A DNA stretch of 32,000 nucleotides from Promethearchaeota archaeon (lineage in GTDB: Archaea; Asgardarchaeota; Lokiarchaeia; Sigyniarchaeales; Promethearchaeaceae), in assembly GCA_016933055.1 (NCBI GenBank), contig JAFGBS010000002.1, positions 60,001 to 92,000 of the forward strand, in the 5' to 3' direction. Below, piece after piece: positions 2,661-7,173 of the stretch (its first letter is position 1; the number at the start of each line of letters is the position of its first letter). The translations under genes and the position numbers were made by a program. The notes below the pieces were generated by a model that was not told the DNA's origin, searched no databases, and saw nothing but the letters and a program-made list of their open reading frames with translations.

Positions 2661-2715
2661 TATTCCATTTTGCTATCCATAGGTTAATTTGGTTTGTGAG
2701 ATTGATCATGTTGTA

Positions 2716-4023
2716 ATGACGCTCCAGATGAAAAGTGCTAAAGCTGGAAATATAAGTCCCGAAATGGAAAAAATCGCGAAAAATGAAAGCATCGATGTCG
2801 AATTGGTAAGGAAAGGTATTGCAAGCGGAAGAATAGTAATTTTCAAGAGTACAACTAGTACCTGTAACCCATTAGGAATTGGAGAAGGGTTATCTGTTAA
2901 AATAAATAGCAATATTGGTGCTTCCCAAAAAGTTTTTGACATCCATCAAGAAGTGGAAAAAGCAAAAATTTCAGAACGATATGGAGCAGACACCATTATG
3001 GATTTAACATCTGGTCCCACCGAACAAGCTATACGCGAAGTGCGTTCGGCAGTTTTGAAAAATATCACAGTACCTTTAGGGACGGTTCCCATGTACCAAA
3101 TTGCAGTTCGTGCGATTGAAAAAGCAGGAGGAATCGTTAATATGACGGAAGATGATATGTTCTGCGTTGTGGAAGAACAGGCGAAAGAGGGGGTAGACTT
3201 TTTCACCATTCATGCCGGAGTAACAAAAACACTTGCCGAATATATTAAAAAACATCCCCGGTTTATGGGCATAGTAAGTCGTGGAGGAACTATAACCGCA
3301 GTTTGGACTTTACAAAACGATCTAGAAAATCCATTCTATTCTAATTTTGATTATTTATTGGAGATGGCTCAAAATTATGATTTTTCCTTATCGTTAGGGG
3401 ATGGATTCCGCCCTGGTTGCATTTTCGATTCTACCGATTACCCCCAAATCCAAGAACTTCTTACCTTATCTCGATTAGTTAAACGCGCGCATGAAAAGAA
3501 TGTTCAGATTATTTGTGAAGGTCCCGGACATATACCTGCTCATCAGATCGCAGAGAATATACGATTACAAAAATCCGTTACCGACGGAGCACCTTTTTAT
3601 GTGTTAGGACCCCTTGTAACGGATATTGCTCCGGGATATGACCATATTGTGGGGGCTATTGGGGGAGTGATTGCAGGTTTGAGTGGAGTAGATTATTTGT
3701 GTTATATTACTCCAGCAGAGCATTTAGGACTCCCCACATTGGAAGAGGTGAAAGAAGGAGTGATTACATTCAAGATTGCTGCCCATGCGATTGATTTAAC
3801 ACGCAATTGGGATCGAGCTTCCGCTTGGGATCAGAAAATGGATAGAGCTCGAAGAGACTTAGACTGGGAGGAGCAAATTAGAATCGGGATTGATCCAGAA
3901 AAAGCTAGATGTATTCGAGAAAGAGACGGTGCTATTGAACGGAATGAACCATGTACTATGTGTGGAAATCTCTGCGCCATCAAAATTCTGGAAGATACAA
4001 TAAAAAAGGATAAAGAGGATTAA
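2716..4023 (+). CDS. thiC: Phosphomethylpyrimidine synthase ThiC (radical SAM)
   Basis: VKINSNIGAS, GADTIMDL, GVDFFTIHAG, SLGDGFRPG, EGPGH, FYVLGPLVTDIAPGYDH, YITPAEHL and C-terminal CTMCGNLC (Cx2Cx4C). Neighbours are thiN and thiW. ATG 2716 chosen as the start. Confidence 0.93.
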   Translation: MTLQMKSAKAGNISPEMEKIAKNESIDVELVRKGIASGRIVIFKSTTSTCNPLGIGEGLSVKINSNIGASQKVFDIHQEVEKAKISERYGADTIMDLTSGPTEQAIREVRSAVLKNITVPLGTVPMYQIAVRAIEKAGGIVNMTEDDMFCVVEEQAKEGVDFFTIHAGVTKTLAEYIKKHPRFMGIVSRGGTITAVWTLQNDLENPFYSNFDYLLEMAQNYDFSLSLGDGFRPGCIFDSTDYPQIQELLTLSRLVKRAHEKNVQIICEGPGHIPAHQIAENIRLQKSVTDGAPFYVLGPLVTDIAPGYDHIVGAIGGVIAGLSGVDYLCYITPAEHLGLPTLEEVKEGVITFKIAAHAIDLTRNWDRASAWDQKMDRARRDLDWEEQIRIGIDPEKARCIRERDGAIERNEPCTMCGNLCAIKILEDTIKKDKED

Positions 4024-4580
4024 TCGACTAAATTTAAAATCAGTTGAATTTTTTCGATTAATTCATCTGAATTCTTAGCAAACAGACGGACCATGGGTTC
4101 TTTTCCCATTTCTCCCGTATCCCATATAATATCGGGTATTTTTTGATATTTTTGATATACATTATTGATGATCCAAGACATAGAGGAATCTTCGGTTTGT
4201 TGAGTCTCCATGGGCTGATTAGTGCGATCGATCTCCACAAGAAGAAGATGTGTGCGGGACAGGTTTTCAATGAGTTTTGGACTGTATCGAATATTAATAA
4301 CTGCTGAAATGGTTGGATCAAACTTTCTGGCGGTAAGTAATAATCTTCCTGTGTGGTTCGTTGCACCGAATGTGATAGGCCCTGCTGCTTTTGGCATACC
4401 TTGCACAATAGTGATTCGGCCATCCACACCAGCAATATCATCAAGAGATGTCGCATCTGGTGAAGCTACAGCGACATTTGTCCGAACCTCTGGAATGAGT
4501 CTAGAAAATTTCTTAGCACTGCTGATAAATTCAATAATATTTTTCACTTTTTCTAGTATTTCTTTGTGTTTTGAACGCAT
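4020..4580 (-). CDS. thiN: Stand-alone archaeal thiamine-phosphate synthase ThiN domain
   Basis: LIPEVRTNV, DIAGVDGRIT, FGATNHTGRLL, AVINIRYS, WDTGEMGKEPMVRLF. ATG at 4580 avoids overlap with the divergent gene, so the longer ORF call to 4736 looks spurious. Confidence 0.85.
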   Translation of the reverse strand: MRSKHKEILEKVKNIIEFISSAKKFSRLIPEVRTNVAVASPDATSLDDIAGVDGRITIVQGMPKAAGPITFGATNHTGRLLLTARKFDPTISAVINIRYSPKLIENLSRTHLLLVEIDRTNQPMETQQTEDSSMSWIINNVYQKYQKIPDIIWDTGEMGKEPMVRLFAKNSDELIEKIQLILNLVD

Positions 4581-4638
4581 GAGGGATTCACTTATAAAGA
4601 GTACAAAATTTTTAGGGAATTGCTTGTAGTATAGTGTT

Positions 4639-5790
4639 ATGCAAGGGTCGATCCCAAATATTGTCTTGGGTAGTATATTTTGTTTTTTTATGATTTTTCT
4701 TTCTGTTTTTATCGTTTTAATTTGGAAATCTTCCAAATTCCAAGGTATTGATCAACGTGTTTTTCTTGGGATCATCACATTTCTATATGGATTATTTGTT
4801 TTGTTAATTTCGTTCGATTTAACGTTGTTTCAGACGCAATTGGTTTTTATATTTAGTATTGGTCTAGTCAATGCATTACTCATCGCAATTTCTTTTGTGA
4901 TCCTATTAGGTTCAAAATATCTCATTGGTACTTTTATTTCTGGTATTTTTTTCATTATAGAAGTTGCTTTCATGATGATTACAACAACTATGCAAGACCT
5001 TTATATCGTTGCAGCTATTCTGATCTCAGTTCCATCCTTATTTTTCATTGTGATTGCTATCTACGCACAAAGTACAGCTAAAAAAAGAGAACTATATTTT
5101 AGTATTATATTTGCGATTTTTGGAATTGCTATTCTATCTAGTACTACTAGTTTGATGCTTATATTTAGTGATTCAGGACATTCATTATGGTTATTGATAT
5201 TATTATTAACCGGAGCCCTCAGCATATTGACATCGGTAATATATTTTCAAAAGGACGAAAGTCGGGGGTATCATCTAGCTTTACGTGTTGCTCTGACAGC
5301 AATGTTTACTGCGTTGGGCGTTGTTCTTAGTTTCATTAATCCTTTTGCGTATTTCGAATTGGGAGGTTTTAAAGTTAATCCGTTTGCTCATTTAATTAAT
5401 GCCATTGCAGGTGTATTTTTAGGTCCATTTTGGGCAGTCCTTGCAGCGTTATTTATAGCAATAATTCGGTTTAGTGTTGGCATCGGAACTATTTTTGCCT
5501 TTCCAGGGGGAATACCAGGGGCTTTAGTAGTGGGAATTGTAGCAGCCGTGATCAGTGCAATGAAACGAGAAAGATTCCGAATTATTGCTTCATTATGTGA
5601 ACCAATTGGAACTGTGGGTATTGGCGCAGTTATTAGTTACGCCTTTATGGGAGCACCTTCGACTATTTTCTTGTGGGGTGGTTTTGCTATTTCCTCAGTT
5701 CTTGGTTCCATTCTTGGTTTTACAATCCTCTTGATACTACGAAAGCGAAACATCAATTACTTTCAATTTGGTGAGAACGCGATTGGGTGA
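4639..5790 (+). CDS. thiW: Membrane protein: about 7 N-terminal TM helices fused to an ECF S-component ThiW (thiazole/thiamine-precursor binding)
   Basis: The C-terminal ~170 aa carry ThiW motifs (ALTAMFTALGVVLS, NPFAHLINAIAGVFLGP, GTIFAFPGGIPGALVVG, EPIGTVGIGA). Residues 5-203 are seven hydrophobic segments not belonging to ThiW. Confidence 0.8.
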   Translation: MQGSIPNIVLGSIFCFFMIFLSVFIVLIWKSSKFQGIDQRVFLGIITFLYGLFVLLISFDLTLFQTQLVFIFSIGLVNALLIAISFVILLGSKYLIGTFISGIFFIIEVAFMMITTTMQDLYIVAAILISVPSLFFIVIAIYAQSTAKKRELYFSIIFAIFGIAILSSTTSLMLIFSDSGHSLWLLILLLTGALSILTSVIYFQKDESRGYHLALRVALTAMFTALGVVLSFINPFAYFELGGFKVNPFAHLINAIAGVFLGPFWAVLAALFIAIIRFSVGIGTIFAFPGGIPGALVVGIVAAVISAMKRERFRIIASLCEPIGTVGIGAVISYAFMGAPSTIFLWGGFAISSVLGSILGFTILLILRKRNINYFQFGENAIG

Positions 5791-6469
5791 AGATGTAGTA
5801 TTTTACTCTAAATATTCACAATTTGGTAGAAATAATATTGTTCTATATTCTGATCCGTACTTATGTCATCAATTGCGATTATTAGCCTTCTCCGAATGCC
5901 TAGGGAAAAGTGTATTACTTTTTGGTGAATCTAATGTGGGAAAAACCGAAATTACTTCTGAATTTCTCTCTTTTGTGCTTTCCTCTTCAAAATTGGAGAA
6001 AATTTATGTTGTTGATATCGGTCCAGAGCGATTTCGGATGGGAGGGTTGGAAATCGGCGGGAAAATATCGGATTTTGATGACACATATCACACAAATCCA
6101 AAAGTTACGACATTTTCCTACCCTATTACCCCACCACGTAGTAATTCAAGTTCTTACTTGGAAATCTACAAAAAATCCTTGCAAAATTATAAAATAATAA
6201 TTAAGGATATGGAAAAAATAGTCGAATACCTTTTTTCACAACAAAGTATTTCGTGTGCTCTTATTATCAATGATCTCAGTATTTTTTTGCATATGGGTTC
6301 CTTAAGGCTAATACGATCCCTTTTAAAAACATCTCATACCATTTTCGTTAATTCCTATTATGGTACGGTTCTTTCAGATGATTTCGGTTCAAATCTTACC
6401 TTTAGAGAACGTGTGTTAGTCAATAGGATGATTCGACATTTTGATTATCCTATTCGCTTAATACATTAG
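5768..6469 (+). CDS. Hypothetical P-loop NTPase/kinase-like protein
   Basis: Walker A VLLFGESNVGKT and Walker-B-like LIINDLS. The TTG/GTG start overlaps the thiW-fusion stop. Confidence 0.65.
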   Translation: MVRTRLGEDVVFYSKYSQFGRNNIVLYSDPYLCHQLRLLAFSECLGKSVLLFGESNVGKTEITSEFLSFVLSSSKLEKIYVVDIGPERFRMGGLEIGGKISDFDDTYHTNPKVTTFSYPITPPRSNSSSYLEIYKKSLQNYKIIIKDMEKIVEYLFSQQSISCALIINDLSIFLHMGSLRLIRSLLKTSHTIFVNSYYGTVLSDDFGSNLTFRERVLVNRMIRHFDYPIRLIH

Positions 6470-7173
6470 CAAGATTGTTCAGAAGTGAGTTTTTCAATAA
6501 TATTCGCTACTTCTTCCAAAATTTTTGATAATTTAGACTTGGATAGAGAATCCCGGGATGATTCATTCAAGATCATTGTAAGATTTTGATAGGATCGCTG
6601 ATAAGCCCACAACGCTTTATCATCCAATCCTAAACTTTCAAAATCCTTTCCAAGGTAATAAAAAGCAAGAGGATACTTATAATTATTTTTGATTAAGCGC
6701 ATGAGAGTTGCTACGGAAAGGTCATACCGGCCACTGAGAAAATAAGTTTTTCCCAATAAGAATTTGGCTTCCTCATTGCTTGGATCGTCATGATCCAATA
6801 CATCAAAAATAATATTTAGACTCGCAGCGTATTTCTGTTCTAAGAGGAGCTTTTTTGCTCGGTTCAGTTTATCGATAACTACCACACATTCTTCAATTTC
6901 TGCTTCTTCATGCGGTATATCTGGGGGTAGTACTTCCTCAATTTGGGATTTTTTGGAATATCGATCCAAAATAACCTCAGAATATTTCGTATTACACACA
7001 GGACAGAATTCAGATTGTATCAGCCACATCTTTAAGCAAGGATCGATATGGAGATAATGCCCATTGTCACATGCCACATAATTTGCATCCTCTAGGTATT
7101 CCTCAGGATTTAATACTATTTTAGTATGGCATACAACACAACTGATCTCTGAATTCATGTATATCACGTACAT
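6466..7173 (-). CDS. RING-H2 finger plus TPR-repeat protein (putative E3 ubiquitin ligase)
   Basis: C12-x2-C15...C35-x3-H39-x2-H42-x3-C46-x3-W50...C57-P-x-C60, an acidic linker, then about 3 TPR-like helical pairs (AKFLLGKTYFLSGRY, AFYYLGKDFESLG). Confidence 0.8.
   Translation of the reverse strand: MYVIYMNSEISCVVCHTKIVLNPEEYLEDANYVACDNGHYLHIDPCLKMWLIQSEFCPVCNTKYSEVILDRYSKKSQIEEVLPPDIPHEEAEIEECVVVIDKLNRAKKLLLEQKYAASLNIIFDVLDHDDPSNEEAKFLLGKTYFLSGRYDLSVATLMRLIKNNYKYPLAFYYLGKDFESLGLDDKALWAYQRSYQNLTMILNESSRDSLSKSKLSKILEEVANIIEKLTSEQSC

Follow-up and report, generated by a model that had tools for sequence, protein, structure and literature searches.

The gene at positions 4639-5790 (+ strand) of a 32,000-nucleotide stretch of genome from a Promethearchaeota archaeon (NCBI GenBank assembly GCA_016933055.1, contig JAFGBS010000002.1, positions 60,001 to 92,000; this whole stretch is called the window) encodes a protein of 13 transmembrane helices, in which ThiW, an S-component of transporters of the energy-coupling factor (ECF) type, is fused behind a seven-transmembrane (7TM) domain. 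As judged from sequence, the C-terminal domain is a member of the ThiW family and the N-terminal domain is a member of no known family. We favor, with a probability of roughly one half, the explanation that the protein imports the thiazole moiety of thiamine as a working ThiW, and that the 7TM domain in the same chain is an accessory that co-evolves with it. ECF S-components are thought to topple as free subunits of ~20 kDa that dock on a shared motor, and the architecture seen here is unexpected for a protein that must topple. We found no report in the literature of an S-component fused to a polytopic domain of this kind.

The fusion is real and not an artefact of assembly. The initial annotation had placed ThiW behind a seven-helix domain in one frame, and we recovered this arrangement to within a few residues, in 383 codons from an ATG (Table 1). 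Confinement of the fusion to this assembly, with a stop or a frameshift near the junction, had been named as one finding that would overturn it; the same frame is open for 379 codons, up to the end of the contig, in a genome of the same genus (G001, 59% identity), and it is open in other proteins as well. A check of the sequencing runs showed that a contig of the source sample spans the gene with zero differences.

The start of the gene is conserved. The alignment showed a Met-Gln start in all 10 full-length fused members, and ATGCAAG opens the gene at five fusion loci. The public gene call for this genome (P0002) has 211 amino acids and begins at M173, and public calls cut the gene short in three assemblies in all (P0002, P0008 and P0014, with 211, 349 and 370 amino acids, respectively), for which the conserved start gives products of 383-395 amino acids. 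The public starts of P0008 and P0014 are too short because the upstream frame is open. Between TM7 and ThiW helix 1, the fused members share no conserved internal Met, from which it follows that ThiW is produced only within the fusion. The genome's own public call, and the length of the ThiW proteins of relatives (~170-185 amino acids), would accord with an annotation artefact, in which translation would skip the N-terminal 172-212 codons and yield a stand-alone ThiW from an internal start. We consider this extremely improbable, given that M173 is not conserved in G001, that the frame is open in at least 12 sequences, that the ratio of nonsynonymous to synonymous substitution rates (dN/dS) of the N-terminal part is 0.29, that the Met-Gln start and an upstream element are conserved, and that P0004 lacks Met altogether in the stretch separating TM7 from ThiW helix 1.

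Residues ~213-383 had been assigned to ThiW, and the assignment holds. The domain matched Pfam ThiW (PF09512) over residues 218-369 (E 9.4e-33, 113.9 bits against a cut-off of 30.3) and the NCBIfam equivalog TIGR02359 (thiW) over residues 216-371 (112 bits against a cut-off of 84.35), and it has the six-helix S-component fold. Structure comparison of residues 208-380 returned the S-components ThiT, RibU, PanT and BioY at Z-scores of 12.4-13.9 (VIA), with 13.1-13.9 for ThiT, RibU and PanT over residues 208-379. A shape search of the ESM Atlas with the whole model found only ThiW clusters, over residues 208-380 (TM-score 0.75-0.86), and no 13-helix look-alike of the whole protein was found among Atlas clusters of at least 50 members. 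Foldseek comparison of the whole model with the PDB gave no match at E 0.001 or better, and the S-component rows had a probability of ~1.0. The protein ends 14 residues past ThiW helix 6. In S-components, the helix-1 AxxxA motif is needed for binding to EcfT (Partipilo and Slotboom 2024, PMC11109136). In the fusion, ThiW helix 1 carries a stripe of small residues (A214/A218/A221/A225) that contains A214xxxA218 and A221xxxA225, and the stripe is retained in every fused member, with A or S at positions 214, 218 and 221 and A at position 225; its register relative to ThiT is not fixed, as comparison of the ThiW profile with PDB sequences gave only chance matches.

Where would such a domain find its motor? 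As the initial annotation had stated, no ECF module genes lie in the window, and the four EcfT matches of the genome are on other contigs. We found an EcfA-EcfA'-EcfT row on contig C6, made up of two ABC ATPases and a CbiQ/EcfT protein, with no S gene of its own and flanked by unrelated genes. An EcfAA'T row without an adjacent S gene is the hallmark of a shared module, and the genes of S-components that share a motor are normally not adjacent to the ECF genes. The earlier suggestion that the fusion acts independently of ECF is thus not required, as a shared EcfAA'T is encoded in the genome, EcfT is present in 40 of 41 relatives, and the AxxxA stripe is kept. The other EcfT homologues of the genome belong to dedicated systems, one of them YkoEDC-like. 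In this YkoEDC-like system (contig C15: 124561-127604), the S-component is of the ABC_cobalt type and is accompanied by a fused double ATPase and by EcfT; the YkoEDC type is linked, in Bacillus, to uptake of hydroxymethylpyrimidine (HMP) or thiamine precursors. The fourth EcfT homologue (contig C31: 36724-37308) has one in-frame TAG inside the match.

The N-terminal domain was analyzed in an AlphaFold2 model of the whole protein, based on a 20-row alignment (mean per-residue confidence, pLDDT, of 78; predicted TM-score, pTM, of 0.67). Its helices span residues 4-31, 39-57, 63-90, 94-114, 118-145, 156-175 and 183-203, and agree within a few residues with the seven helices listed from the sequence earlier. 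Lys and Arg are found only in alternate loops (residues 30-40, 91-93, 146-155 and 204-212), and the N-terminus is therefore predicted to be outside and the C-terminus inside, with a cytoplasmic junction that fits the cytoplasmic N-terminus of an S-component. The linker at this junction (residues 204-212, nine residues) is fixed in length in 10 of 11 members, and pLDDT drops below 50 at residues 206-210. All loops of the N-domain have 10 residues or fewer. Conservation is 0.64-0.76 in TM1-4 as against 0.48-0.50 in TM5-7; N7, D38, R40, N78 (in TM3) and K93 are invariant polar residues, and E108 (in TM4) is kept in 10 of 12 members.

Residues 1-212 matched no Pfam or NCBIfam family, and a profile of the N-domain found no match among PDB sequences at E up to 10. 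An origin of the N-domain by internal duplication, as a diverged copy of the S-component, was rejected, since hhalign gave a probability of 0.4% against the ThiW profile. An internal 3+1+3 repeat of the SWEET/Pnu type was not detected (probability 1-2%). At the level of fold, residues 1-205 of the full model matched a designed fold resembling a G-protein-coupled receptor (GPCR) (Z 14.3, root-mean-square deviation (rmsd) 3.8, 199 residues aligned) and the 7TM domains of class C and adhesion GPCRs (Z 12-13), and no S-component or EcfT chain was found among the 50 best matches. The N-domain is therefore probably neither a known S-component nor an EcfT-type accessory, an identity that had been named as another possible refutation. 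Modelled alone, the N-domain gave a weaker model (pLDDT 62) with the same arrangement, and its confidence was higher in the full-length context; the isolated model matched the GABA-B receptor (Z 17.0, rmsd 2.9, 203 residues aligned) and, at Z ~14, microbial rhodopsins and the adiponectin receptor. The structure tool warns that helical bundles reach such Z-scores without kinship, and we therefore interpret the N-domain as a generic GPCR/rhodopsin-type bundle, apparently lineage-specific and of no known family, and not as a homologue of these proteins. The helix arrangement superposes on class C GPCRs (GABA-B, GPR156) and microbial rhodopsins over ~200 residues (Z 14-17, rmsd 2.9-3.8), but with an identity of only 5-13% and with no Pfam match to the GPCR superfamily at E up to 10, so that the likeness is one of fold only.

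Three candidate families were rejected: microbial rhodopsins, because Lys is absent from TM7, where it would hold retinal, in all 12 members; PAQR-type hydrolases, because only one His is conserved, and that partly; and 7TMR-DISM, because the match is below the Pfam gathering cut-off and there is neither a DISMED extracellular domain nor a cytoplasmic output domain. The match to 7TMR-DISM_7TM (PF07695) was collinear and weak (16.1 bits against a cut-off of 29), and was obtained with two of 10 members (E 0.011 and 0.61). The nearest ESM Atlas shapes were 7TM modules that stand at the N-terminus of bacterial histidine kinases and AraC/GerE-type regulators (TM-score 0.63-0.72), and the language-model neighbours of the N-domain were membrane clusters named 'histidine kinase' (score 0.90). 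These three hints are weak and depend on one another. With the fusion, the Asgard repertoire gains an orphan 7TM domain of receptor-like shape.

We compared the two halves with those of G001 in a codon alignment. The N-terminal part showed 48% amino-acid identity, two one-codon indels and a dN/dS of ~0.29, and the ThiW part 72% identity and a dN/dS of 0.08. The N-domain is under purifying selection. A HMMER search with a profile of the N-terminal part against 1.84 billion representative proteins returned two proteins only, namely, a fusion of 386 amino acids on a 61-kb metagenome contig and a product of 201 amino acids comprising the N-domain alone (P0003), on an ENA contig of 1142 bp. In P0003, there is an in-frame stop exactly at the domain junction, and a second gene call begins 45 nucleotides further on without a change of frame; either the gene is naturally split there or the stop is a nonsense error. 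When proteins of 210-671 amino acids were searched with the ThiW part, 11 fused proteins were found (286-389 amino acids, one of them partial), and all those with a source name are labelled Promethearchaeota. ThiW is present in 21 of 41 relatives, and an N-terminal extension is found only in the present genome (G000) and G001; the others have a stand-alone ThiW with a short hydrophilic leader. Across Asgard genomes the fusion is conserved in G000, G001 and about 11 metagenomic proteins, and other genera have a stand-alone ThiW. In 400 species-representative genomes of the phylum, no credible match to the N-domain profile was obtained beyond G000 and G001, and three matches at E ~0.005-0.01 all carry stop codons. 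A word-indexed search with the N-domain sequence returned only the genome's own shortened gene call, and one with a 10-row N-domain alignment returned nothing, known members included, probably because hydrophobic words swamped it. The distribution is narrow, about one genus, and this limits the present weight of the finding. One metagenomic protein of 265 amino acids (P0015) has a ThiW of the stand-alone type with a C-terminal cytoplasmic extension of ~100 residues, in which there is a weak hint of a helix-turn-helix (HTH_PafC, E 0.089).

In a maximum-likelihood tree of ThiW domains, all 13 fused rows fell on one side of a branch with support of 100/99 and a stem length of 0.79. The fused ThiW domains form one clade, and the fusion therefore arose once. 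On its stem, 15 residues became fixed that are rare outside the clade, and the stem includes helix-5 changes such as F327G; F272, R314, G327 and V331 are among the clade-specific residues. The loop that joins helices 5 and 6 is shorter in the fused ThiW domains, and their C-terminal tail is specific to the clade. The long stem and the 15 clade-specific residues suggest that the two halves have co-adapted. A complex prediction with the N-domain and the ThiW domain as separate chains scored 0.00, which counts neither way. No gene for a membrane protein that might represent a precursor of the 7TM domain was found beside stand-alone thiW in other genera.

The genome is 91% complete; its genes for ThiC and ThiN lie in the window, and those for ThiD and ThiL lie outside it. 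We found in it no Thi4 (TIGR00292) above the cut-off, no ThiG and no ThiT, and no ThiM, the sole match to hydroxyethylthiazole kinase being part of the NAD(P)HX repair enzyme. The fusion is the genome's only ThiW. Thi4 is absent from 19 of the 21 ThiW-bearing relatives, and one genus has Thi4 and lacks ThiW; among the relatives, the two largely complement each other. Apparently, the cell makes the pyrimidine half of thiamine and must import the thiazole half, which would mark the clade as a thiazole auxotroph that relies on its neighbours for half of its thiamine. With a sole ThiW and no thiazole synthase found, a purely sensory role is unlikely and the ThiW domain must therefore transport.

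A P-loop NTPase of unknown family, whose gene (5768-6469; also L004:2053-2751) overlaps the 3' end of the fusion, accompanies ThiW closely. It is present in 22 of the 41 relatives, as against 21 for ThiW, and is always adjacent to ThiW, fused or stand-alone; in genome G003, ThiW, the P-loop protein and ThiD form a row. In the Atlas, it is modelled with a RecA/AAA-like fold, and hypothetical proteins resembling it are found in Thermoproteota, Bathyarchaeota and Methanobacteriota. Because it tracks ThiW, stands in a row with ThiD in G003 and no ThiM was found, the P-loop NTPase is a strong candidate: it could be the thiazole kinase that is missing or, otherwise, an energiser.

From the reading frame, the domains, their conservation and single origin, and the pathway context, all of which were observed, we infer the dependence on ECF and the role of the 7TM domain as follows. 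The ThiW half would serve as the S-component for the thiazole moiety and bind the thiazole precursor outside; it would dock, through the AxxxA stripe of helix 1, on the shared EcfA-EcfA'-EcfT encoded elsewhere, topple, and free the substrate inside. The thiazole would then be phosphorylated, possibly by the adjoining P-loop NTPase, and ThiN would join the product to HMP diphosphate made by ThiC and ThiD. The 7TM bundle was presumably captured once in the ancestor of the clade. As the short linker of fixed length ties the bundle to the very helix that would dock on EcfT, the 7TM domain most likely acts in cis as an accessory that stabilises, anchors or gates docking and toppling; a role as a signalling receptor in its own right is less likely.

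Several points weigh against this explanation. The substrate specificity of ThiW is itself a genomic prediction. The 7TM domain is predicted to have a shape like that of bacterial kinase sensor modules, and this would fit sensing as well as a structural role. A bulky domain tethered beside the helix that docks on EcfT could prevent docking instead of tuning it. The stop at the junction in P0003 implies that the two halves may work as separate chains. Finally, two metatranscriptome runs of the source study contained no words of the locus, and no metatranscriptome contig was found over it.

It is also conceivable, though doubtful, that the 7TM domain is a built-in partner that alters how the S-component acts, either as a motor-free scaffold in cis or as a ligand-sensing gate of uptake. 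If true, the fusion would be the first S-component found to be covalently joined to a membrane partner of its own. By its tether, the fusion provides a natural test of how free an S-component must be to topple, and it is a possible example of regulated or motor-free uptake of a vitamin precursor.

Complete independence from ECF would make the protein a self-contained transporter, with the 7TM domain as a static scaffold against which ThiW topples in the manner of an elevator, and with the substrate trapped by the P-loop protein as thiazole kinase. There are recorded cases of S-components that function with no ECF module (BtuM, PMC6072759). The lack of a detectable ThiM, the P-loop NTPase invariably beside ThiW, the long fused stem with its helix-5 changes, the pTM of the whole model and the gain in N-domain confidence in the full-length context are all compatible with such a transporter. 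However, stand-alone ThiW proteins have the same P-loop partner and no 7TM domain, so that the presence of this partner does not imply a scaffold; the AxxxA stripe is kept and EcfAA'T is available; and GPCR-like bundles are not known to serve as scaffolds for transport. We therefore hold this to be unlikely. We give a still lower rating, as decidedly improbable, to a sensor or transceptor, in which the 7TM domain would be a true receptor for an external cue and either gate ThiW or signal ThiW binding to a partner protein. The Atlas shapes, the language-model neighbours and the faint 7TMR-DISM_7TM match described above point in this direction, as do N78 and E108, which are conserved polar residues within the membrane, and the S-component fold is common to 5TMR sensor kinases (PMC11109136). 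All these similarity scores are nevertheless below significance, and helical bundles can give such values by chance. The proposed coupling of ligand binding to signalling did not find support, as the protein has no output domain, the conserved neighbourhood has no two-component or other signalling gene, and the adjoining P-loop NTPase also accompanies stand-alone ThiW; moreover, the sole ThiW of the genome must still transport.

Two transporters in one chain, with the 7TM domain as a separate channel or carrier for another compound, fused for co-expression only, would have a parallel in an archaeal fusion of a polytopic transporter, NRAMP, to the S-component-type fold 5TMR (PMC11109136), and the P0003 contig, with its stop at the junction, gives a hint that the two halves can be separated. 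We judge this very unlikely: no transporter family was matched by sequence or by fold, no SWEET/Pnu-type repeat was detected, and the N-domain occurs alone nowhere in the 400 genomes of the phylum or the 1.84 billion representatives, save on the P0003 contig.

The NRAMP-5TMR protein, which was described together with the 'transceptor' concept (Partipilo and Slotboom 2024, PMC11109136), is also the nearest precedent for the fusion as a whole. Both are archaeal and carry an S-fold domain C-terminal to a second polytopic domain. In NRAMP-5TMR, however, the C-terminal domain is a 5TMR sensor without AxxxA and the N-terminal domain is a known transporter, whereas the present protein combines an AxxxA-bearing S-component with an orphan bundle. 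With the ThiW family, the fusion shares both profile matches, the six-helix fold, the helix-1 stripe and the location in a thiamine gene island. All other ThiW proteins examined are stand-alone, with ~160-200 amino acids; the fusion has 212 additional N-terminal residues with seven more helices, besides the clade-specific substitutions, loop and tail mentioned above. Solitary S-components such as BtuM and the solitary BioY are likewise proposed to act without a dedicated ECF module, and no ECF genes adjoin the fusion; they are, however, single-domain proteins, and the genome of the fusion has a shared EcfAA'T, so that solitary action is not required. The N-domain resembles prokaryotic 7TM receptor modules (PF07695, sensor histidine kinases) in having seven helices, an N-out/C-in topology and an N-terminal position in a larger protein, but it lacks their extracellular sensor and cytoplasmic output domains and is followed by a membrane domain instead.

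Table 1. Features of the fusion gene and its surroundings (positions in the window).
Feature	Position	Strand	Basis or remark
Whole fusion gene	4639..5790	+	383 codons and stop, ATG start, 13-TM protein
Orphan 7TM domain, residues 1-204	4639..5250	+	AlphaFold2 helices, topology, conservation, fold matches, dN/dS
TM1-TM4	4648-4731, 4753-4809, 4825-4908, 4918-4980	+	AlphaFold2 helices
TM5-TM7	4990-5073, 5104-5163, 5185-5247	+	AlphaFold2 helices
Cytoplasmic charged linker, residues 205-212	5251..5274	+	Low pLDDT, alignment
ThiW ECF S-component domain, residues 213-383	5275..5787	+	Pfam and NCBIfam matches, fold, dN/dS
thiC (HMP phosphate synthase)	2689..4023	+	Pfam ThiC_Rad_SAM E 2.6e-177, synteny
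thiN (thiamine-phosphate synthase), divergent from fusion	4020..4580	-	Pfam ThiN E 8.9e-56; likely start ATG at 4580
Conserved promoter-like element between thiN and fusion gene	4588..4638	.	Five-locus comparison
P-loop NTPase of unknown family	5768..6469	+	Overlaps fusion 3' end by 23 nucleotides

The source sample of the genome is a sediment metagenome. Two hot-spring metagenome runs from other studies yielded contigs of 143-221 nucleotides, identical or one base off, which cover parts of the ThiW domain and of the P-loop gene; these pieces fall in 5272-5553 and 5885-6464, and none bridges the domain junction.

The intergenic element between the divergent thiN and fusion genes is of ~50 nucleotides and contains TCAC, GAGTACAA, TTTTTAGGG and TTGTAGTATA. 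Five loci share it almost unchanged, even though identity among their N-domains is only 33-55%. The TTTTTAGGG box lies at 4609-4617, centred ~27 nucleotides before the ATG, and this spacing would suit an archaeal TATA box if the mRNA is leaderless or nearly so. The element probably serves as a compact promoter for both directions and may include an operator; an operator of a wider regulon was rejected, because the element is unique in the genome. An Rfam scan of the window found no thiamine pyrophosphate (TPP) riboswitch and one tRNA only.

The order of genes in the window, with SelR, NUDIX, ThiC, ThiN (on the opposite strand), the fusion and the P-loop protein, is the same at four further loci, and where the contig reaches further downstream, a RING/TPR gene, two Alba genes and LSM follow. 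The order thiC-thiN-fusion is kept in six loci, and the thiN orthologues at the syntenic loci encode 187-190 amino acids. The RING-H2 and TPR gene (6466-7173, - strand; L004:679-1392) adjoins the thiW cluster even in another genus, in which thiW is unfused.

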